Of a DNA stretch of 64,000 nt, positions 13,984 through 56,507 are shown piece by piece. The stretch is from an uncultured Rivularia sp. (GTDB lineage: Bacteria > Cyanobacteriota > Cyanobacteriia > Cyanobacteriales > Nostocaceae): the NCBI GenBank assembly GCA_963665115.1, contig OY762007.1, forward strand, positions 1,216,001 to 1,280,000. Direction: 5' to 3'. Positions within the stretch are counted from its first letter, which is position 1, and every line of letters starts with the position of its first letter. The notes under the pieces were generated by a model. It saw only the letters and a list, made by a program, of their open reading frames with translations, did not search any database and was not told where the DNA came from. Position numbers and translations under genes: made by a program.

Positions 13984-15381
13984 TCAATCCAATGGTTTCA
14001 TCGATAACACTGGTTCATCTTCCCGTTCGATACCTCTTTCAAAACCCGCAGCAGCAGCTCTTGCGCGACCAGCGTGCCAAAGATGACCGACAAGAAACAG
14101 TAGTGAAAAAATAAAGTGAGCAGAAGCCAGCCAGGTACGAGGCCCAACAAAGTTGAAGGCATTAAGTTCAGTTGCTAGACCACCAACTGAATTTATAGAG
14201 CCGATGGGAGAATGAGTCATGTATTCGGCCGCCCGACGCTTTTGCCAAGGTTGAATATCATTCTTGAGCTTATCTATATCTAGTCCATTAGTTCCTCGTA
14301 ACGGTTCTAACCAAGGAGCTTTGACATCCCAAAAGCGCATTGTTTCAGCCCCAAAGATGATTTCTCCTGTTGGCGATCGCTGTAAATATTTACCTAAACC
14401 AGTCGGACCTTGGGATGTAGATATATTCGCTCCTAAAGCTTGGTCGCGCACTATAAAGTTGAATACTTGAGAATTGGCAGCCTCTGCAACTGTCGGGCCA
14501 TAAAACTCGCTCGGATAAGCAGTATTGTTAAACCAGATAAACATCGCAGCAATAAAAGCTTGTCCGGCTACATTACCCAAACTTTGAGAAAGATAGGCTT
14601 CACCAGACCAAATAAATACTCTATCGGTCCACTTAAAAGGTTTAGTGATAATGTGCCAAATACCACCAAGTATTAGTAAACCACCTACCCAAATATGACC
14701 GCCAACTAAATCCTCTAAGTTATCAACGCTAACAATATTACCAGCACCCCCCGTAAACGGACTAAATATGTAACCAAAAATTATTCTTGGGTCAAGAGTT
14801 GGGCTGGTAACAAGGCGCACATCACCGCCACCCGGTACCCAAGTATCATATAAACCACCCCAAAACATAGCTTTACCGACAAGTACGTAAGCCGCTAGAC
14901 CAAGGGCAATCAAATGATATCCCAGAATACTAGTAACTTTGTCCTTGTCGCTCCAATCAAAATTGAAGAAACCTGCTAGCTTTTCGGGACCTCTAATTGA
15001 GTGATAAATCCCACCAAAACCTAAAACAGCAGAGCCTATTAAATGCGTTACCGCAATAGCAAAAAATGGGAAAGTGTCTACAATTTCACCCCCATATCCT
15101 ACACCAATGCCGAGAGTGGCAATATGAGGCATTAAAATTAAGCCCTGCTCGTACATCGGCTTTTCTGGTATATAGTGAGCAACTTCAAACAACAGCATTG
15201 CTCCAGCCCAGAACGCAATTACTCCAGCATGAGCAACATGAGCGCCTAAAAAGCGACCGGATAAATTGATAAAACGGGCATTACCAGCCCACCATGCATA
15301 TCCAGTAGATGCCTCATCACGACCTTCTCTCTTTTCAGAGTTAACAGTCGTCGTGCTTGATTTTTCAAAAGGTGTTTCCAT
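13984..15381 (-). CDS. psbC2: Photosystem II CP43, far-red paralog
   Basis: [42 protein letters not shown]. Confidence 0.95.
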
Positions 15382-42740: not shown

Positions 42741-43832
42741 ATGGTACAGTCTGAATTACAACGTACAATTACGACCTCAACCGATAGCGATTTGGTTGTT
42801 AAACCCACCTCTCAAAGTAATGTTGTAGAAAGAAGCGATTATTCCCAGGTATGGGAAAGATTCTGTCAATGGGTAACTAGTACCGATAATCGTCTTTATA
42901 TTGGCTGGTTTGGACTGGTGATGATACCTACTCTTTCCATAGCAGCTATCGTTTTTATAATTGCCTTTATTGCTGCTCCTCCCGTAGATATGGGTGGTTT
43001 GGGAGAACCAATTTCTGGTTCTTTACTTGATGGTAATAATATTATTACTGCTGCTGTTGTTCCCACTTCGGCGGCGATTGGACTGCACTTCTATCCGATT
43101 TGGGCAGCGGCTTCTTTTGATGAATGGCTGTGCAACGGAGGTCCATATCAGCTGATTGTGCTGCATTTTTTGATTGGTATTTATTGCTATCAAGATAGAG
43201 AATGGGAGTTAAGCTATCGTTTGGGGATGCGTCCTTGGATTAGTTTAGCTTTCTCTGCTCCAGTCAGTGCCACAGCCGCAGTACTATTAGTTTATCCAAT
43301 TGGACAAGGAGGTTTTTGTGAGGGAATGCCTTTAGGAATTTCGGGGACTTTCTATTTCATGCTGAAGCTACAAGCCGAACATAATTTTCTGATGAATCCA
43401 TTTCACATGATTGGAGTAGTTGGAGTTTTGGGAGGAGCATTCTTGAGCGCTATGCATGGTTCCTTGGTAACTTCGACTCTGATTCACAAATCCAGCAAAC
43501 ATGGTCATAAAAAACAAGCTTACGATTTTATGGCAGTTCACAATTATTTGGGAAGACTTGCGTGGTATCGCTTGAGTTTCACAAATAAGCGTAATTTGCA
43601 CTTGTTATTAGCAGTTGTGCCGGTGGTAGGGATTTGGTCTGCTGCCTTGGGTGTCGTCTCTATGGCATTCAACATTAATGGCTTGAATTTTAATCGGCAT
43701 ATACACGATAACCAAGAGTACGTAATTAATACCTGGGCAGACTCGATTAGCTGGGCCGACTTAGGAATAAAAGTAATGAACGAAGGCAAAATTCACTCTT
43801 TTCCCTTAGATTTATCATCTGGTAATTGGTAA
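42741..43832 (+). CDS. chlF: Chlorophyll f synthase (super-rogue D1, PsbA4)
   Basis: D1 homolog with the QD signature (YQDREWEL) and altered Mn-cluster region ([24 protein letters not shown]). DE loop is 9 aa shorter than in PsbA3. Confidence 0.93.
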
Positions 43833-43887
43833 TTGGTAGTTGGGCATTGGGGATGGGTAATTGGGCATCGGGAATTAGGAATATTAT

Positions 43888-43977
43888 CTACCCCTTCTAC
43901 CCCCTCTACCCCCTCTACCCCTTCTACCCCCTCTACCCCCTCTACCCCCTCTACCCCCTCTACCCCTTCTACCCCCT
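43888..43977. repeat. 9-bp tandem repeat CTACCCC(C/T)T x ~10, flanked by heptamer repeats
   Basis: Seen directly between chlF and psaA2. Confidence 0.9.
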
Positions 43978-44035
43978 CTCTCCTTGTCCCAATTCCCAAT
44001 CCCCCTTGCCATATTTGAAAAAGGAGATAATTATA

Positions 44036-46404
44036 ATGACAATAACTCCAGAGCGAGAGCAAAAAGTAAAGGTAGTAGTTGACAAAGATCCGGTGCCTAC
44101 TTCTTTTGAGAAGTGGTCGAAACCAGGACACTTCGATCGCTCTCTTACTAGAGGTCCTAAAACCACAACTTGGATTTGGAATCTGCACGCCCTGGCTCAT
44201 GATTTCGATACTCATACCAGTGACTTGGAAGATGTATCTCGCAAAATCTTCGCTGCTCACTTTGGACATTTAGCAGTGATTTTCATCTGGTTGAGCGGGA
44301 TGTATTATCACGGGGCAAGGTTTTCCAATTTTGAATCTTGGATGACTAACCCCACTGGAATTAAACCAAGCGCTCAAATAGTCTGGCCAATATTTGGTCA
44401 AGATATTTTGAATGCCGATATGGGTGATGGCTTCCACGGTATTCAAATTACTTCTGGACTTTTCCAATTGTGGCGGGGTGCTGGATTTACTAATACTTTC
44501 CAGCTTTACTGCACGGCAATTGGAGCGTTAGTAATGGCAGCACTAATGCTGTTTGCTGGCTGGTTCCACTATCACAAACGCGCTCCTAAACTGGAATGGT
44601 TTCAGAATGTGGAGTCGATGTTAAATCACCACTTAGCTGGACTTCTAGGTTTAGGTTCGTTGGGTTGGTGCGGACACCTGATTCATGTTTCTTTACCCAC
44701 TAACAAGCTGTTGGATGCTGGGGTGGCTCTTAAGGATATTCCTTTACCTCACGAGTTCATTTTGAATTCCAGTTTAATGGGAAGATTATATCCCAGTGTT
44801 AATTGGGGTTTTATGAGTGGAGTAGTACCATTTTTTACTCTGAATTGGGATCGATACAAAGACTTTCTGACATTCAACGGCGGTCTAAACCCTACTACTG
44901 GTGGCTTGTGGTTAACAGATATAGCGCACCATCACCTAGCTATAGCTGTAATGTTTATTTTTGCGGGTCATATGTACCGCACTAACTGGGGCATTGGTCA
45001 TAACATCAAGCTTATGCTCGATGACCTGAGAAGTCCTAATATGCTGCCATTTTTGAGCTTTATTGGTCCTAGAGGTCATAAAGGTCTTTATGAAGTCCTG
45101 ACAACTTCCTGGCACGCTCAACTATCAGTCAATTTGGCGATGATGGGTTCTCTGAGTATGATCGTTGCCCATCATATGTATGCAATGCCGCCCTATCCTT
45201 ACCTGGCAACAGACTATGCCACAGTTTTATCTTTGTTCACTCACCATATATGGATTGGAGGTTTTCTGATAGTCGGTGCTGCGGCTCATGGTGCGATTTA
45301 TATGGTGCGCGACTACGACCCAGAAGTTAATTATAATAACGTACTCGATCGCGTAATTCGACACCGAGACGCAATTGTTTCTCACCTAGCTTGGGTGTGT
45401 CAATTCCTCGGCTTTCACAGCTTTGCAATGTATTGTCACAACGACACAATGCGGGCTTTTGGTCGTCCCCAGGATATGTTTTCGGATACGGGAATTCAAT
45501 TACAGCCCGTTTTTGCTCAGTGGATACAGCATATTCACACAATGGCAATTGGAAATCTAGGATTGCAAGCGGCTACACCTTTAGGCAATATGTTTGGGGG
45601 CTTAAGCAATTTACAAACCTCTGGACTGGGAATGACGGCTCCAAGTTTACACGAGCCTGTTAGCTATGCCTTTGGAGGCGGTATTCTTGCAGTGGCTGGT
45701 AAAGTGGCAATGATGCCTATTCCTCTGGGAACGGCTGATTTCTTAATTCACCACATCCATGCTTTTACAATTCACGTCACGGTACTAGTTCTGCTCAAGG
45801 GTGTACTATTTGCTCGCAGTTCCCGCTTAATTCCAGATAAAGCAAACCTCGGTTTCCGCTTCCCTTGCGATGGGGCCCTGGTCGTGGCGGTACTTGTCAG
45901 GTATCTGCTTGGGACCATGTATTCTTAGGACTGTTCTGGATGTATAATTCCCTGTCGATGGTAATTTTCCACTTCTTTTGGAAGATGCAGTCGGATGTCT
46001 GGGGGACGGTTGATGGTAATGGGGTAGTTACTCACATTACTGGTGGAAACTTTGCGATGTCATCGATTACGAATAACGGCTGGTTGCGGGACTTTCTCTG
46101 GGCGCAATCTTCCCAAGTAATCAATTCCTACAATAGTGCGCTTTCTGGATACGGGTTAATGTTCTTAGCCGGACACTTCGTTTTTGGCTTCAGTTTGATG
46201 TTCCTATTTAGCGGTCGTGGCTACTGGCAAGAACTGATTGAATCCATTGTTTGGGCGCACAACAAGTTAAAAATTACCACAGCGATTCAGCCCCGTGCTT
46301 TGAGCATTGTTCAAGGTCGGGCTGTGGGTGCTGCTCACTATCTCTTGGGAGGAATTGTTACTACTTGGGCATTCTTCCTAGCACGAATGAGCGCACTTGG
46401 TTGA
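44036..46404 (+). CDS. psaA2: Photosystem I PsaA, far-red paralog; apparent frameshift at ~45873
   Basis: Start MTITPERE after AAGGAG; lumenal insertion [14 protein letters not shown].... The FX motif [12 protein letters not shown] is restored by removing two bases in GGGGCCC. Confidence 0.93.
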
Positions 46405-46453
46405 AGAAACATCAAAACTCTTGTTCGACTCTCGTACTCTCACTCTCGTGACT

Positions 46454-46558
46454 CTCGTTACTAGGCAGAGCCTAGTAATGGATAAAGGGAGGCTCTGCCT
46501 CCTGAGATGGAAGGCAGAGCCTTTAGATATGCATTCCCTGGCAGAGCCAGGGAACGAG
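46454..46558. repeat. Dispersed palindromic element
   Basis: ctcgttactaggcagagcctagtaatg ... gcattccctggcagagccagggaacgag, with three GGCAGAGCC cores on the + strand and one inverted. Confidence 0.7.
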
Positions 46559-46625
46559 GAGCGCAAAAACGAAAAAACCAACCTAGAATTCATAATTTTC
46601 CCTTACTCAAAAACAATGAAAGTTT

Positions 46626-48848
46626 ATGGCAACTAAATTTCCTAAATTTAGCCAAGACTTGGCACAAGATCCGACAACTCGTCGCGTTTGGTATGCGATC
46701 GCAACTGCTCACGATTTTGAAAGTCACGACGAAATGACGGAGGAAAATCTTTATCAAAGGATTTTTGCTTCTCACTTTGGTCATTTGGCGATTATCTTCC
46801 TGTGGGCTTCGGGTATTCTGTTCCACGTTGCTTGGCAAGGTAACTTTGAAGTTTGGATTAAAGATCCACTCCACGTACATCCAATTGCCCACGCGATTTG
46901 GGATGCTCAATTTGGACCACCAGCGATTGAGGCTTTTACTCAAGCTGGAGCGCATAATCCCGTAGATATCTGCTACTCTGGCGTTTACCATTGGTGGTAC
47001 ACCATCGGTATGCGGGCAAATAATGAACTTTATGGTGGTTCGTTGTTTCTTTTACTACTTGCGGCTGTATTCTTATTTGCAGGATGGCTGCACCTCAAGC
47101 CGAAGTTTCGTCCGGGACTTGCTTGGTTTAAAAACAACGAATCTCGTCTAAATCATCACCTAGCTGGTTTATTCGGTATTAGCTCTTTGGCTTGGGCTGG
47201 ACATTTGATCCATGTCGCAATCCCCGAATCTCGCGGTATTCATGTTGGCTGGAATAACTTTCTAGCTGTGGCTCCACACCCCAGTGGATTGTTACCGTTT
47301 TTCACGGGTAACTGGGGTGTTTACGCACAAAATCCGGATACGGCCAATCATGTATTTAGTTCTTCTGAAGGTGCGGGGACGGCAATTCTCACCTTTTTAG
47401 GTGGCTTCCACCCGCAAACAGAATCGCTGTGGCTAACAGATATGGCGCATCACCACTTGGCGATCGCAGTGATTTTCATTGTTGCGGGTCATATGTACCG
47501 TACCAATTGGAGTATCGGTCACAGCATGAAGGAAATGCTCAATGCTAAGAACTTTTTTGGGCAGAAGGTGGAAGGGCAGTTCAATTTACCTCACCAAGGA
47601 CTGTACGATACAATCAACAACTCTTTACATTTTCAACTGTCTTTAGCGCTAGCTTGTTTGGGTGTAGCGAGTTCTTTGGTGGCACAGCATATGTATTCGA
47701 TGCCGCCTTATGCTTTCATAGCTCGCGATTTTACTACAATGTCAGCGCTTTATACCCATCACCAATACATAGCCGGATTTTTGATGGTAGGGGCATTTTC
47801 TCACGCTGCGATTTTCTGGATTAAAGACTATGACTCAGAATTGAACAAGGGTAATGTCCTAGAAAGAGTTTTGCAGCACAAAGAAGCGATTATTGCTCAC
47901 CTGAGTTGGGTATCTCTATTCCTTGGCTTTCACACTTTGGGATTGTACGTTCACAATGACGTAGAGGTTGCTTTTGGTGCAGCGGATAAACAAGTCCTAA
48001 TTGAGCCAGTATTTGCTCAGTTTATCCAGTCGGCTCACGGAAAAGTACTCTACGGATTTAACACTTTGCTGTCGAACTCCGATAGTATTGCTTCGACAGC
48101 ATGGCCGAACCACGCTAACGTTTGGCTGCCCGGTTGGCTCGATGCAGTTAACAGTGGTGCGAACTCCTTATTTTTGACAATTGGTCCTGGTGACTTTTTG
48201 GTTCACCACGCGATCGCCTTGGGCTTGCACGTTACCACCTTGGTTTTAGTTAAAGGTGCGTTGGATGCTCGTGGTTCCAAACTAATGCCAGATAAGAAAG
48301 ACTTTGGTTACTCTTTCCCTTGTGATGGTCCCGGACGTGGCGGTACCTGCGATATCTCTGCTTGGGATGCTTCTTATCTAGGTGTATTCTGGATGCTCAA
48401 TAGCCTTGGTTGGATAACATTCTACTGGCACTGGAAGCATTTAGCTATTTGGTCTGGAAATGTCGCCCAATTCAATGAAAATTCTACTTATTTGATGGGC
48501 TGGTTCCGAGACTACTTGTGGAACTATTCAGCATCACTGATTAACGGTTACAATCCTTACGGTACCAATAACCTAGCTGTTTGGACTTGGATGTTCCTCC
48601 TCGGACATTTAGCTTGGGCTGTGAGTTTCATGTTCTTAATTACTTGGCGGGGTTACTGGCAAGAGTTGATTGAAACTCTCGCTTGGGCACACGAACAAAC
48701 ACCACTATCTTTTGGTTACTGGAAAGATAAGCCTGTTGCTTTGTCTATTGTTCAGGCTCGTTTAGTTGGCTTAACTCACTTCACCGTTGGTTATATTGCC
48801 ACCTATGGGGCATTTCTAATTGCTTCGACGGCAAGTCGATTTGGTTGA
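46626..48848 (+). CDS. psaB2: Photosystem I PsaB, far-red paralog
   Basis: [38 protein letters not shown], 740 aa. Confidence 0.95.
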
Positions 48849-49140
48849 CGATTTTCACAATATGTAAAGACGTAGCAATGCTACGTCTCTGCATTCAATA
48901 AAAAAACCTATTTTTTACTACTATTATTAAAGCTGAGAAAACTTATTTTTGAGCTTTACAAATTTGTCATTCGACCTCCTCTGACATGAGAGCCAAAGCC
49001 TATTTGTTAGAGGTTTTTTTTATGCTTAATTAATTGAAAAAGTATTGATTTTTGTGACAATTAAATATAAAAAAGTACATTCATTTATAAAATTAAGATA
49101 AGAGGATTTTCATAAGTAATAAAATAAAGAATAGGGAACT

Positions 49141-49653
49141 ATGGCTAATACCGATACAGAAATTATAAAACCATATCAAGGCAACCCCTTTGTTGCAAAT
49201 TTATCTACACCTATCAACGATTCTCCCCTAGCAAAAGCCTTTATTAATAATTTACCTGCTTATCGTCAAGGCTTAACTCCTTTTATGCGAGGTTTAGAAA
49301 TTGGTATGGCTCACGGTTACTTTCTAGTAGGACCAGAAGTTGTAGTTGGACCACTCCGAGAAACTGCACATGGGGCTAATTTAAGTGGATTAATTACCGC
49401 TATTTTTATCACTGTATCAGCCTGTTTGGGCATATCTATTTTTGCCTTGGCTACTTTTCAAGGAAATCCTCGCGGGGCTTATAACTCCTACTGCAAAGAT
49501 CCTTTAAGACCATTGCGAACTCGTGAAGAATGGAATCAACTTAATGGGGGAATATTTATTGGTTCAATGGGTGGAGCCGTGTTTGCTTACTTGCTATTAG
49601 AAAATTTTGATGCTTTAGATGCCATGCTTCGCGGTGCAGTTAATGTTGGCTGA
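49141..49653 (+). CDS. psaL2: Photosystem I subunit XI, far-red paralog
   Basis: LSTPINDS, NNLPAYR, GLEIGMAHGYFLVGP. Confidence 0.92.
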   Translation: MANTDTEIIKPYQGNPFVANLSTPINDSPLAKAFINNLPAYRQGLTPFMRGLEIGMAHGYFLVGPEVVVGPLRETAHGANLSGLITAIFITVSACLGISIFALATFQGNPRGAYNSYCKDPLRPLRTREEWNQLNGGIFIGSMGGAVFAYLLLENFDALDAMLRGAVNVG

Positions 49654-49716
49654 TGTTTGATTTTTGGGCTTAAATTTTCAATAGCTATTTACTTCTATCT
49701 AAGCAGGAGAATAATC

Positions 49717-49914
49717 ATGGTAGATATCACACAACTGACAGGAGAATATGCGGCTTCCTGGTTGCCTTGGATAATGATTCCTTTAATTTTTTATATCCTA
49801 CCTTTCCCCATTTTCGCTATCCTTTTTCTTTGGATTGAAAAAGAAGATATTGAAGAAGAAAGAACGGATATTCCAGTAAATCAAATGATGGGTAATGTCA
49901 CAAATATGGACTAA
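49717..49914 (+). CDS. psaI2: Photosystem I subunit VIII, far-red paralog
   Basis: ATG after AGGAG; MVDITQLTGEYAASWLPWIMIPLIFYILPFPIFAILFLWIEKE. Confidence 0.9.
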   Translation: MVDITQLTGEYAASWLPWIMIPLIFYILPFPIFAILFLWIEKEDIEEERTDIPVNQMMGNVTNMD

Positions 49915-51353: not shown

Positions 51354-51767
51354 TTGAAGCACGTAGTGGAAAAATTAAAAAGTTTGTTGTCATTGACTCT
51401 TGATGAACTTACAGAATACAGCACCGATGCTCGTAAAATAGAAAAATTGCGACGGAAGATTTGTTTAGCCGTACCAATGGCAGAACAAAGAAAGGTAAAA
51501 GAAGAATTATTGACGCAGATGCCTGCTGGTGAAATAAATAAAATTATCGAAGAACAACGGCAAACAGTAGCTTTACCGTTTTGGGGAATTGGTGGTTTAG
51601 GTTTGTTGCTTGGAATTTCACTTCATCAACCCATCGGCTTGTTAGCTGCAATCGGCGGTACTTTTGCTGCCATTAAAATTCAGAAATTAGGTTGGGAAAT
51701 GCAAGCCAAGCGACTTTTACTGCAAACACTTGAAGATATTGAAGTTCGTTCTAAGCAACCGAATTAA
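51354..51767 (+). CDS. Hypothetical membrane protein
   Basis: 137-aa ORF with two hydrophobic helices. Confidence 0.65.
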   Translation: MKHVVEKLKSLLSLTLDELTEYSTDARKIEKLRRKICLAVPMAEQRKVKEELLTQMPAGEINKIIEEQRQTVALPFWGIGGLGLLLGISLHQPIGLLAAIGGTFAAIKIQKLGWEMQAKRLLLQTLEDIEVRSKQPN

Positions 51768-52145: not shown

Positions 52146-52315
52146 GTTTTAACGTACTTGCTTTGTTAGCCTGGGAATTGATTTGGAGGCGGATTTAAAG
52201 CTAGTGGATAATGTTGAAAATGTCATGTTTTACATTTTGTACCATTATCAAAACCGCCGGGTAATCTAATTTAAATACCTACGCAATGTTACTTCTAAGA
52301 GGATGTTTTAAAAGT

Positions 52316-52597
52316 CTAATTTAATACTTTACTTGTTGCTGAATCACATATGCCCCCAATATATGATGTGTTTTTTAATGTACATAGTGGCTCGTTAGGA
52401 TTACATTTATCAATCTCGTCTTCCAAAAACTTGAGATTAGATACCGCAGAGTTTAGAAACTGTCGAACTTCAAACTCCTTATTATCTTTGGAGATCAAAT
52501 TGGGGACAATTGCAGATCCGATCGCCCCAAGCATTCCCAATAAAGCAACCACAACTGGAATGGTATTTTGACCCGATTTGTTGCCTTTTGAACTCAT
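52316..52597 (-). CDS. Hypothetical protein, probable second cassette gene (possibly truncated)
   Basis: Begins 48 bp after the GTTAGAC core site; N-terminal TM helix. Confidence 0.5.
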   Translation of the reverse strand: MSSKGNKSGQNTIPVVVALLGMLGAIGSAIVPNLISKDNKEFEVRQFLNSAVSNLKFLEDEIDKCNPNEPLCTLKNTSYIGGICDSATSKVLN

Positions 52598-52644
52598 GAC
52601 TGATGTACTGGATTGATTTTATCTTCACTGTTATGACCGAAGCG

Positions 52645-52717
52645 GTCTAACGCTTCGCATCAGCGGTAGACAAAGCGCGTAGCGGTTTGGCGATCCGGCT
52701 GCATACGCTTGTTATAT
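52645..52717 (-). other. Integron attC-like recombination site (73 bp)
   Basis: Minus strand: ATATAAC-AAGCGTATGCAGCCGG...CCGCTGATGCGAAGC-GTTAGAC. R'' overlaps the methyltransferase stop codon; R' matches GTTRRRY. Confidence 0.8.
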
Positions 52718-53359
52718 TTTGTGTAATTTCTTTGCTGCAACAAAATAGCTAGATGCTCCTTTGAATATTTCTTCGGACTCAATGGCCTCGAGTTCCCCTT
52801 TTGCTAACAAAATGTCTATGTCACTACTTTTTATTCTTCTAATTGGAATGGGAATTACTCCAAACTTACACAATATCCGAACCAGCTGTATCTGGAGATT
52901 AACTAAAAATGACATCTTTTGCCCTAAGCAAGGCGTTACAGAAATAAATATGCCGTCAGGCTTTAACAGGTCATTTATTCGATACACAACATTTTGCGGA
53001 TTGGGTACTGTGTGCAACATGTTGAAAGCTAGAATCATATCAAATGATTCATTTTGAAATTTATCTTCAAATAAGTCCGCCTTTTCGAAGTGTACATTAT
53101 CAATTTTACTAACAACTGCTTTCTCTTTTGCTATCCGAATCATCTCAGATGAGATATCGATACCTTGTATTTCTTTCACCTGACTGGAAAACTCACAGGA
53201 TGCTGTGCCGGTTCCGCATCCATAATCCATAACGATATAACTATCTTTGAGGTGCTTTTTGGTGTTCTCCCTTGCCTTTTTATGGATGTATTCAAAACGC
53301 TTTTCTGTCTTGTCATAATTTTTTGAAGCCTTATTCCAAAAATCTTCCGACTTATTCAT
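52712..53359 (-). CDS. Class I SAM-dependent methyltransferase (gene cassette)
   Basis: VMDYGCGTG, GIDISSEMI, LLKPDGIFISVTPC; AAGGAG RBS; only ~20 bp of leader after a GTTATGT core site. Confidence 0.9.
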   Translation of the reverse strand: MNKSEDFWNKASKNYDKTEKRFEYIHKKARENTKKHLKDSYIVMDYGCGTGTASCEFSSQVKEIQGIDISSEMIRIAKEKAVVSKIDNVHFEKADLFEDKFQNESFDMILAFNMLHTVPNPQNVVYRINDLLKPDGIFISVTPCLGQKMSFLVNLQIQLVRILCKFGVIPIPIRRIKSSDIDILLAKGELEAIESEEIFKGASSYFVAAKKLHKI

Positions 53360-53379
53360 TGTTTATAGCTCCTTGAAAA

Positions 53380-53479
53380 ACATAACGCTCAGCTAAATGG
53401 CGAAGTAATGTTGGCGACTTTTGTGCGTTTCTTTGCACAAAAGGTGCCAATATTACAAAGAGCGAAGTTAATCCAAACT
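53380..53479 (-). other. Truncated attC-like site
   Basis: R' GTTATGT (53380-53386), L'-like TTTAGCT and a long inner hairpin (53405-53456). The R''/L'' arm is absent, replaced by the CRISPR repeat. Confidence 0.6.
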
Positions 53480-53656
53480 CCCCACCGATTGGGTTAATTC
53501 GGATTAGTTGGAAACGCCCCCGGTTGTGACTCCACCTGTACCTCCAACCCCCACCGATTGGGTTAATTCGGATTAGTTGGAAACCCTTATGTATCCAGTT
53601 TACAGCAATGTTCACTTCTTCCCCACCGATTGGGTTAATTCGGATTAGTCGAAAAC
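53480..53656 (+). CRISPR. Orphan mini CRISPR array: 3 repeats, 2 spacers
   Basis: 36-bp repeat CCCCACCGATTGGGTTAATTCGGATTAGTTGGAAAC at 53480, 53549 and 53621 (last degenerate, ending TCGAAAAC). Spacers are 33 and 36 bp. No cas genes in the window. Confidence 0.88.
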
Positions 53657-53711
53657 TTGTAGAGACGTAGCACTGCTACGTCTCCCAACCCGTTGAAAAA
53701 AAACTCGTCAA

Positions 53712-56507
53712 TTAAAGCCAATTCCCAACTAAGACATAAGGTGCCCAAATCAACGGCGGTTCACTATTCTTTAAAAGTTTAATTTGGGCTTGCTGTAAAG
53801 CTTTTGCTTTGTTCGATTTATGCTGTTGTAATTCTCGGTAAAATTGACTCATCAATTGAGCAGTAGATTTATCTTCAACAGCCCATAAGCTAGCTAAAGT
53901 ACTCCTGGCACCCGCACTAATAGCAATCCCAGAAAGCCCTAAAGTTGCTCTTTTATCTCCATTAGCGGTTTCGCAAGCACTAAGTACTAATAACTCAATA
54001 GCTTGAGAATCTGCATTTTTATTAATCTGAAATAATTTATCGAAGTCTTCAAGTTTTAATAGTTTGTTCCACGTCAAAATATAGGTTTCTTCTGAGTTTG
54101 AACTAAAATTACCGTGGGTAGCAATATGAACTATGGTATATTTGGCTGAATCAATTTGCTTTTCTAAGTTGACATCGGTGAAGGATCGATCGATCAGTTT
54201 TTTACTTTTAGGTATTTGTAACCTAATTGTATCCAACTCAAGCTGCACGTTATTGAGAGGATTAAATTCTTGATTATTAATTATTCGCTTTTCGGTGACT
54301 CCAGCCATCAGAATATTTAATTCTTTTCTTTTTAACGGTTTTGGCTCCAGCATTTGCAAACCTGGAGTTAAAACAATGGCATATTTTTCGATTAAATATT
54401 TTGGCTGTTTTTCTTGCGCTTTACTATCGTATAATACCGCCATTGGAATATTTCTTAAGTTGCCATCTAAGACAAATACCAATGTTTCTATTTTGTTTTG
54501 TTCTAAATCAGCTTCTAATGGTTGAATTAACCAACTATATATCTTTCCAGAGATTTGATTTACTTTCTTAATTTGTTCTGGTTGTCTGAGACTGTATTGT
54601 AGTTTTTCTAAGGTGTTTTCAAGTTCATTCGCTTTAAGAAAAGTGGTGTAACGATTAAATTTATCTTGATTGGGAAGTTTGAGAATTATTTCGAGACGGT
54701 TTTGTAAAATAATTGGGTAAATAACTGCTGCTGCGGTATCAGTGTTATCAACTACTGTATCAATAATTTCAGGTTTAGCCTGCAAGCAAACTTCCTGAAA
54801 GTAATTTTCTATTTCCCTTAATTGTAGAGCTTCAATCACATCGCGGGCTTTTTTTAAGTTGTTGCTAACTAAGTTTTGTTTACTCAAACTTTTTGTAGTT
54901 ACATTCTGAGATGGTGACTGTAAAAGTAAATCAACGAGTTGTCTATAAACTGGCTCTACTTTATCTCGAAATGAATATTGTATATCTGAATTGAGTACGA
55001 GCAAATCACCACGCAAATCGTTTAAATTCTCTACCGCTTGAGAATAATATTCTATTGCTGAGGTAGTGTTTTGTTCAAGTTTGAATATATATCCTAATTG
55101 CCATTGCCAAAGATAAGCTATATCTTGAGCTTCTATTCTCAAGGCTAAGTCAACAGCTTTTTTAGTTAGTTTACCAGCGGAATTCAAATTTTGGGTTTGT
55201 AAGTATACGCTACCAAGAGTACCCATTGCATAAGATTGCAATCTTGTATCTTCCAAGGTTTCCGCTTGTTTAATCGATAAAGCTAAAATTTTGGCTATCT
55301 TTTCCCATTCCGGTACATTGCTCGGACTTACTTGTTTTAATAATAATAGATTTTGTGCTAAATTAATCCGAGCCTTAAGTGATGTGTTAGATACGGGCAA
55401 TGTATTGATAGTTGGTTGCAATTCAGAGAATAATTTGCCAGCTTTGGAAAATTCTTCAAGTTCTATTAATACACTAAATTTATTTAATTGGGCTTTAACT
55501 TTGATTGCGGGTGATGTCGATACAGCTACAGTTTTATCGTAGTTTTCTAAGGCTTGCTGATATAATTTTCTTGTTTCTTCAGATATCGGTTTACTCACAT
55601 AAACTAACGGCGAAGTTTGCTCAAATATTGTTGCGTTTTGTAAAAGCGACTGCTCTTTATTTCCCTTTGCACGTTGAGCGTTACCCAAACTCAGCAAAGT
55701 TTGAGCGATTTGAGGATTAGATTTAATTTCTTGAGCGGTTTGATAGCTTTGCTGTAAAATTTTTAAGGAGGCTTCAATTTCCCCTAAATGTAATTGAACG
55801 TCACCAAAACTGCGTAATGCTGTTACTTTAAGAACGGAGGCTGGCTGTTGATTTAATTCGGGAAGCACTTGTTCTAAAGTTTTCAGAGCTAGGTGATAAC
55901 GTCCTAAAGCTTGTAATGCCAGACTTTGATTGATTAAACTCCGAATTTTTGCATTATTGAAATCACCTCGTTCGTAGATAGCAGTAGCTTTTTTCCAGTT
56001 TTCTAGAGCTAATAAGGGTTTTCCTAACGTTAACTGGATGTTAGCTTGAATATCTAAAACTTGAGCAAATACTTTTAATCTTTCCTTGTCATCATCAATA
56101 TTTAATTTATTTTCTAATAATTGACGGCTTTGGATAATGTACTTCAGAGCTTGCTGATATTCACTAATTTGCTTGTAAGCGTTGGAAATATTGCTGAGTG
56201 CGATCGCCTGTTTAATTGGATTACTTTGATTTTGAAAAGTTAGCGCTGCTTGCTCTAAAATAGATATCGCTTCTGAAAACCTTTGTGCATCATAAAGTTT
56301 TTTACCTTTTTCCAATAAATCTTCTGTATTTATCTGATTTTGACTAATTTGAGCCAGATAAGCTGGATTAAAATTACTTTGTGTGAAATTATTTTGAGCA
56401 TCAGCTTTCGGTAGCGAAACAGGAATTAAAATTGATTCGCAAACAAAAGTGAATATACCTGCTAAAACAAATAAAATTATTTTTGAAAGCCATCTTTTAT
56501 ATTGCAT
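53712..56507 (-). CDS. TPR + CHAT domain protein
   Basis: Signal peptide, TPRs, HIATHGNFS, LSACETA, WAPYVLVGNWL. Confidence 0.9.
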   Translation of the reverse strand: MQYKRWLSKIILFVLAGIFTFVCESILIPVSLPKADAQNNFTQSNFNPAYLAQISQNQINTEDLLEKGKKLYDAQRFSEAISILEQAALTFQNQSNPIKQAIALSNISNAYKQISEYQQALKYIIQSRQLLENKLNIDDDKERLKVFAQVLDIQANIQLTLGKPLLALENWKKATAIYERGDFNNAKIRSLINQSLALQALGRYHLALKTLEQVLPELNQQPASVLKVTALRSFGDVQLHLGEIEASLKILQQSYQTAQEIKSNPQIAQTLLSLGNAQRAKGNKEQSLLQNATIFEQTSPLVYVSKPISEETRKLYQQALENYDKTVAVSTSPAIKVKAQLNKFSVLIELEEFSKAGKLFSELQPTINTLPVSNTSLKARINLAQNLLLLKQVSPSNVPEWEKIAKILALSIKQAETLEDTRLQSYAMGTLGSVYLQTQNLNSAGKLTKKAVDLALRIEAQDIAYLWQWQLGYIFKLEQNTTSAIEYYSQAVENLNDLRGDLLVLNSDIQYSFRDKVEPVYRQLVDLLLQSPSQNVTTKSLSKQNLVSNNLKKARDVIEALQLREIENYFQEVCLQAKPEIIDTVVDNTDTAAAVIYPIILQNRLEIILKLPNQDKFNRYTTFLKANELENTLEKLQYSLRQPEQIKKVNQISGKIYSWLIQPLEADLEQNKIETLVFVLDGNLRNIPMAVLYDSKAQEKQPKYLIEKYAIVLTPGLQMLEPKPLKRKELNILMAGVTEKRIINNQEFNPLNNVQLELDTIRLQIPKSKKLIDRSFTDVNLEKQIDSAKYTIVHIATHGNFSSNSEETYILTWNKLLKLEDFDKLFQINKNADSQAIELLVLSACETANGDKRATLGLSGIAISAGARSTLASLWAVEDKSTAQLMSQFYRELQQHKSNKAKALQQAQIKLLKNSEPPLIWAPYVLVGNWL

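Follow-up and report, generated by a model that had tools for sequence, protein, structure and literature searches.

How did three CRISPR repeats come to lie against a broken integron recombination site in a cyanobacterial chromosome? The locus is part of a 64,000-nt stretch of DNA, hereafter the window, which corresponds to C1:1216001-1280000 of the host genome (G000) and belongs to a single contig of 8.69 Mb. A preliminary description of this DNA, made from its letters, proposed two origins for the fusion: aberrant Cas1-Cas2-type joining of cassette DNA at a repeat boundary, which it favoured, or a deletion or recombination that fused two mobile scars. The elements of the locus, in window coordinates, are listed below.

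51354..51767 (+): left flanking host gene, 137 aa; in G003, next to the CHAT gene
52299..52332 (+): leftmost 34 bp of a MITE of the host, from a 120-210 bp family with TWA-flanked inverted repeats; left joint of the cassette block
52330..52650 (-): second gene cassette, truncated; ORF start at 52597; matches neither a Pfam nor an NCBIfam family
52645..52717 (-): attC of the methyltransferase cassette, full length (73 nt), with three private substitutions
52712..53359 (-): SAM-dependent methyltransferase gene cassette, 215 aa, ORF intact (Pfam Methyltransf_31, E 2e-25)
53380..53456 (-): truncated attC; R', L' and terminal hairpin present, L'' + R'' arm (27 nt) gone
53457..53479 (no strand): filler, 23 nt; AACT at 53476-53479 equals the conserved leader end
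53480..53515 (+): repeat 1, identical to the repeat of the III-B array
53516..53548 (+): spacer 1, 33 nt; no target found
53549..53584 (+): repeat 2, identical to the repeat of the III-B array
53585..53620 (+): spacer 2, 36 nt; no target found
53621..53656 (+): repeat 3, terminal and degenerate, with two mismatches
53658..53684 (no strand): palindromic repeat, abundant in the host, right behind the array (a 50-nt bin here contains the starts of 583 BLAST hits)
53712..56507 (-): right flanking host TPR-CHAT gene

An Rfam search returned no family at the stub and cassette locus. The MITE family is one that we take to be IS5/IS1031-like.

The CRISPR stub and its cognate type III-B locus

The three 36-nt repeats start at 53480, 53549 and 53621, and their 33- and 36-nt spacers fall inside the 28-46 nt range of 932 cognate spacers. 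With its near-identical direct repeats and unique spacers of regular length, the stub is a CRISPR array. The repeat core has exactly three matches in the window, as compared to none in 100 shuffles. The preliminary description had thus correctly reported three 36-bp repeats, a degenerate copy on the right, and no further repeat in the window. Across the host genome, a scan allowing up to 11 mismatches identified 94 copies: the three of the stub, 90 at C1:1699382-1705858 and one variant at C1:1685218.

The 90-repeat array lies 430 kb away and its repeat is identical to that of the stub. It comes after cas2, cas1 and a separate reverse transcriptase (RT) gene, beside Cmr2-Cmr6, Csx3, CARF-RelE and a WYL gene, which assigns the cognate region (C1:1.685-1.712 Mb) to type III-B. 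Hence, the same repeat does stand beside a cas operon, as it had been suggested to look for, and the type III affiliation first guessed from recall becomes III-B with an RT. The large array, with its leader after cas2, also backs the plus orientation of the stub and a leader side on the left. On that side, no leader precedes repeat 1, as had been remarked: only the last 4 nt match, and the identity of the 23 nt to leaders (7-10 of 23) stays inside the spread of spacer ends.

RT, cas1 and cas2 look intact at the cognate locus. The cas10/cmr2 gene (C1:1690871-1692575, L096) forms two ORFs in this assembly, the split consisting of a deletion between short direct repeats together with a frame change, with a net length 71-74 bp shorter than in G016 and G166; the frameshift may be partly a sequencing error. 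Three cas6 genes sit away from the III-B locus, as expected for a III-Bv-like system, a label that we use by analogy with the available text of PMC12464536. As described there, the CRISPR3 III-Bv locus of Synechocystis likewise combines Cmr2-Cmr6 with Csx3, a 36-nt repeat and no cas6 in the locus; unlike it, the present locus has a separate RT gene by cas1 and a cas10 that is split in this assembly. The ORFs of RT and cas1 are adjacent but separate (C1:1707035-1709166, L097), and in tblastn searches they also match as separate neighbouring stretches in 11 related loci.

Other CRISPR-like elements are present in the host genome, which carries several further arrays. A degenerate repeat-spacer-repeat unit (C1:1685218-1685330) lies downstream of the CARF-RelE gene and faces the cas operon; it presumably resembles regulatory mini-arrays, and its spacer has no match over 12 nt in the cas region. 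At C1:8685195-8685226, a copy of the same MITE family as in the window is found inside the terminal repeat of another array, and the two arrays of that region are separated by a gene pair that we assume to be RelE/HigA-like.

The stub spacers have nothing in common with the 89 spacers of the main array or with 932 collected spacers, no spacer is shared among 388 family genomes, and spacer 2 occurs in none of 26 other genus genomes. Exact 20-mers of both spacers gave no match in viral contigs, nor did those of spacer 2 in metagenome contigs. Scans with half-spacers against viral contigs returned 31 and 4 matches, the best of which have 9 and 14 mismatches across the full spacer. BLAST against phages and plasmids produced no match covering 80%, and self-targets in the host genome are not better than in three shuffles. 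Overall, the search of phage, plasmid and host DNA that had been proposed gave no target for either spacer, a common outcome that says little. We also considered the stub as a severed trailer of the main array but found no support for it: the last repeat of the main array is intact and is followed by the trailer also present in G016, and the stub's trailer matches only the host palindrome.

The cassette block and its attC sites

The DNA between 52330 and 53456 is foreign and single-copy in the host genome. The methyltransferase cassette has 22 related loci with varied neighbours, in one of which (L027) the gene is directly behind an integron integrase; it is an integron cassette. The closest six copies, 96-99% identical at the protein level, document its movement among cyanobacteria, a Desulfobacula and a Thiohalocapsa. 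Out of 60 relatives, only G016 has the same block, in another host context and also without intI, with 99% identity over 52330-53456 and a homology that begins at 52330.

In G016, the upstream attC is intact (104 nt, full bottom-strand hairpin, 7/7 R pairs and 6/7 L pairs), whereas the window keeps 77 of the 104 nt. The site at 53380-53456 is therefore correctly called a truncated attC: without L'' and R'', it lacks the bottom-strand pairing of R''/R' and L''/L' arms with extrahelical bases that the G016 copy shows. The hairpin left of repeat 1 folds far better than shuffles (z = -5.6), and the earlier view of an attC-like hairpin cut mid-site holds. Among 350 genomes of the class to which G413 belongs, 5 have related sites.

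The second site in the window, the attC of the methyltransferase cassette, is mutated at 52668, 52705 and 52716, and its bottom-strand fold has -14.5 kcal/mol as compared to -20.6 in G016. Relative to the six closest copies, the host cassette carries five private substitutions, three of them in the 73-nt attC, and three codon changes, all non-synonymous; these counts are small. CALIN elements have at least two attC sites; in the window, a heuristic, distinct from IntegronFinder's model, called neither the full-length site nor the truncated one. The ORF of the second cassette encodes 123 aa in G016; in the window the break comes after about 89 codons, and the frame continues into the MITE.

No TIGR02249 match, and hence no integron integrase, is found in the host genome; within the genus, a single genome out of 27 exceeds the cut-off for intI. 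The CRISPR repeat is absent from 65 loci (some of them duplicates), among them all 22 cassette loci, which were searched together with as much as 3 kb of flank, so that the pairing does not recur with the methyltransferase cassette.

Several observations concern the wider distribution of this DNA. In L021 and L023, the methyltransferase cassette is behind an attI-like region without an intI ORF, and in L025, L026 and L029 it occupies apparent secondary GTT sites. Another genus member, G007, has an 81% homologue with an attC-like site among insertion-sequence remnants (G007:C1:3815493-3816174, L063). Identity between G016 and the host genome is about 83-89% for ordinary genes but reaches 99% within the cassette block and 98% over the 1.5 kb that follow the III-B array (G016:C189, G016:C702). 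This contrast in sequence identity suggests recent DNA exchange between the two lineages.

The joint, the filler and the surrounding gap

The truncated attC is homologous to G016 only as far as 53456, which leaves 23 nt before repeat 1, and 53457-53479 lies outside that attC. The preliminary description had placed the junction at the repeat edge (53479) and drawn from it the argument for Cas1-Cas2 joining; with the cassette homology ending 23 nt earlier, this argument fails. Breaks are visible at -23 and possibly at -4, not at 0.

The last 4 nt of the filler, AACT (53476-53479), are those of the conserved leader end. Among 26 repeat groups, all 19 recognisable leaders end in GAACT, and two more seen later end alike; the other seven groups are at contig ends, behind insertions, or consist of single degenerate repeats. 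Only 2 of 932 unique spacers end in AACT, and the genome background is 0.66%. Judging from these letters, a leader stub may survive at the end of the filler. The filler would be either 4 nt of leader behind 19 nt of other DNA or a cut spacer that ends in AACT by chance. Exact matches to it in JGI metagenome contigs amount to zero, it was not found in the host genome and the stored loci, it is absent from related attC sites (one further genome was left unscored), and the upstream cassette piece of G016 does not contain it. Five 17-mer matches were obtained in viral contigs, the best at 21/23, which by our estimate is about chance for a collection of this size. A derivation from the repeat was rejected, as the 10/15 likeness is equalled by 45 of 400 spacer ends.

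The joint at 53456/57 is bridged in all four runs of study P1, by contigs free of differences that extend 37-49 letters on the short side. Runs X1-X3 may be the assembly's own source, and X4 looks like a sister strain, with 1-1.5% differences in nearby pieces and other substitutions. In an independent study, a microbial-mat run (X9) gives a 338-nt contig over 53163-53500 with one difference and 44 letters on the short side of the same joint. The join is real and common to related strains. On the other hand, the junction abuts a repeat, and the contigs enter repeat 1 by only 14-26 letters, less than the 31-letter rule for the joint 53479/80. A misassembly, named beforehand as one of the cases that would overturn the fusion, is largely refuted by the bridging of 53456/57 in contigs of two studies, and we regard an assembly chimera as extremely improbable.

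Further runs show variants of the locus. In a sediment run (X5), a contig ends exactly at 53456, in what would be a branch between intact and fused forms; the X5 form is also without a further 322 bp from the same MITE point, its joint skipping 52332-52653. Run X20, a small-share run, contained only methyltransferase homologues. The region 53135-53505 shows no difference in X4 despite 1-1.5% elsewhere; together with the near-identity of 53163-53500 in X9, this could be a faint hint of conservation.

The surroundings of the fusion were compared with those in relatives. In G003, whose flanks are 97-99% identical, the convergent flanking genes are about 0.39 kb apart, separated by unrelated DNA with no cassette and no array, and the G003 genome contains no copy of the stub repeat. 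The host gap measures 1.9 kb and is composed of host repeats, the MITE end, the cassette block, the stub and the palindrome. At its left end, the block breaks off inside the 123-aa ORF and shares 3 nt of microhomology with the MITE (52330-52332), and other MITE copies diverge from the window after 52332. A composite element bounded by MITEs was rejected, no MITE pair being listed at the locus. No relative with a leader and array at this position, that is, an intermediate state, was found. Elsewhere, G018 (C396, L156; genome 83% complete) has an orphan two-repeat stub with the same repeat and a full leader, each repeat being truncated at its 3' end and joined there to host repeats; in addition, leaderless sub-arrays that follow insertions occur in 2 of the 26 repeat groups (G004 and G166). 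These forms are plausible precursors of the stub.

Origin and fate of the fusion

At this locus, a leaderless III-B stub is joined, via the 23-nt filler, to a broken piece of foreign integron cassette DNA, and we consider it likely that this came about by illegitimate recombination in a junk-filled gap between two convergent genes. A small orphan array with its leader, or a severed piece of array, would have landed in the gap, and a cassette block from a congeneric donor would have landed there too. A later deletion may then have cost the leader most of its length and the attC 27 nt. We infer this order of events; the recombination itself could have proceeded by deletion or insertion at short microhomologies.

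Several findings argue for such an origin. The attC homology does not extend past 53456, the block is also broken at its opposite end, mid-ORF and at a MITE microhomology, and X5 carries a further deletion. The gap is full of host repeats, as compared to about 0.39 kb in G003, and neither the host genome nor the G016 block has an intI. In addition, the cassette carries private substitutions, the repeat is absent at 65 loci, and relatives show both precursors. Of the two options of the preliminary description, the fusion of two mobile scars by deletion or recombination thus fits best, given the two broken block ends; Cas1-Cas2 joining loses ground, since homology ends 23 nt before the repeat and the last 4 nt match the leader end. 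Counting against the scar origin, searches gave no source for the other 19 nt, no intermediate relative was found, and X4 and X9 give their weak hint of conservation. Besides, the AACT end brings the break unusually near the leader-repeat junction; the action of a site-directed enzyme would account for this as well.

It is worth asking whether the conserved leader end was an enzyme-chosen landing site for kb-scale foreign DNA, either for an integron integrase at GTT or for RT-Cas1-Cas2 joining the end of a long DNA; taken as a whole, we judge this rather unlikely. In the integrase version, which is unlikely by itself, a transient enzyme would have put cassettes at the GTT of the leader end (bottom strand, 1-4 nt from repeat 1), and most of the first cassette, together with the displaced leader, would have been lost through later deletions. 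On the cassette strand, the kept AACT corresponds to AG^TT and is correctly oriented, IntI uses GWT genome sites according to the available text of 10.1101/2022.09.11.507474, several cassette copies start right after a non-attC GTT (e.g. L025, L026, L029), and one genus genome has an intI over the cut-off. However, the bases after this GTT do not fit RRRY: the implied cassette start, GTTTGGA, violates the GTTRRRY core given in the available text of PMC8876359, and no cassette start examined by eye begins with GTTT. Moreover, two further deletions are required, no leader remainder is left at the distal end of the block, and the upstream cassette piece of G016 is without the filler.

The version with Cas1-Cas2, very improbable in our view, has the enzymes and their RT join the end of a long foreign DNA, to which cassette and filler were already attached, to the leader-side edge of repeat 1. 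RT, cas1 and cas2 do look intact at the cognate locus, one joint would fall exactly at the repeat edge if all 23 nt were foreign, and off-target integration has been reported in E. coli (as cited in the available text of 10.1101/148544). Yet a product of these enzymes should have its joint at the repeat edge and duplicated repeats, and here the cassette breaks 23 nt away and the far end of the block has no second repeat; a half-site event on DNA to which the filler was attached beforehand keeps a small probability. It would also need AACT by chance (0.2-0.7%) and a cassette-filler join made before capture, which is absent from the JGI metagenome collection and from 388 family genomes. A different proposal concerns function: the stub would be co-opted, and its two crRNAs, made by read-through or from a cassette-internal promoter, would serve the III-B complex in trans. 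The sequence of the cognate repeat is reproduced exactly in repeats 1 and 2, the join is kept in related strains, one extended -10-like site is found at 53291-53319 (+ strand), and X9, which has a contig across the join, is an RNA library. We nevertheless find co-option improbable, as the promoter scan gave 2 sites against 4.4 expected by chance, contigs from RNA libraries do not show transcription, self-targets are not above shuffled controls, viral or plasmid targets are lacking, and cas10/cmr2 is split by a frameshift in this assembly.

Both parts of the fusion are of known kinds, an orphan array and integrase-less cassettes. Orphan (isolated) CRISPR arrays are ordinary and can be served in trans. 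The stub resembles them in its repeat, identical to that of a cas-linked array in the same replicon, its unique spacers and its degenerate terminal repeat; it differs in that at most 4 nt of leader are left, which makes its own transcription and spacer uptake doubtful. Neo-CRISPR arrays, made by off-target Cas1-Cas2 (Nivala 2018, as cited in the available text of 10.1101/148544), are also short and far from cas genes; here, in contrast, repeats 1 and 2 match the native repeat at 36/36 positions, which duplication of a chance site would presumably not give. Integrase-less attC clusters are common, and half of them are in genomes without intI, according to the available text of PMC4889954. Similarly to the CALIN and SALIN elements described in the available texts of PMC4889954 and 10.1101/2022.09.11.507474, the block consists of a few real cassettes with attC, is chromosomal, and has no intI nearby or elsewhere in the genome. 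It differs from them by having one full-length, decaying attC and one truncated attC, both block ends broken at non-att positions, and an adjoining CRISPR stub. A search of the literature, covering mostly the main texts of non-subscription papers, retrieved no published description of an attC-CRISPR fusion; in the available text of 10.64898/2026.07.20.739571, attC is named only as a compositional analogy.

The truncated attC is predicted to be beyond recombination, and the stub to be frozen and devoid of a promoter of its own. Any crRNA arising from the stub by read-through would be predicted to depend on the Cmr complex encoded far away, and the cas10 of that complex carries a frameshift in this assembly. 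Overall, the fusion is real and inherited, and probably accidental. As a scar it matters little, being a resolved example of how orphan stubs and integrase-less cassettes arise and erode in cyanobacterial chromosomes, with the caution that a join seemingly flush with a repeat should be compared with an intact reference before it is ascribed to a Cas1 mechanism. If an enzyme had directed the event, leader ends would be landing sites for integrons, or long DNA would be a substrate for Cas1-Cas2. This would amount to direct cross-talk between two bacterial systems for capturing foreign DNA, with the array silenced and cassettes parked there.

Two other features of the window lie outside the locus. 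An Rfam match at 14769-14955 corresponds to the IsrR antisense RNA. At 42741-49914, inspection of the translations by eye indicates a second photosystem gene cluster with divergent psbA-like, psaA, psaB, psaL-like and psaI-like genes, which we take to resemble a far-red-light cluster; its psaA is split at 45865-45928 by an apparent frameshift.
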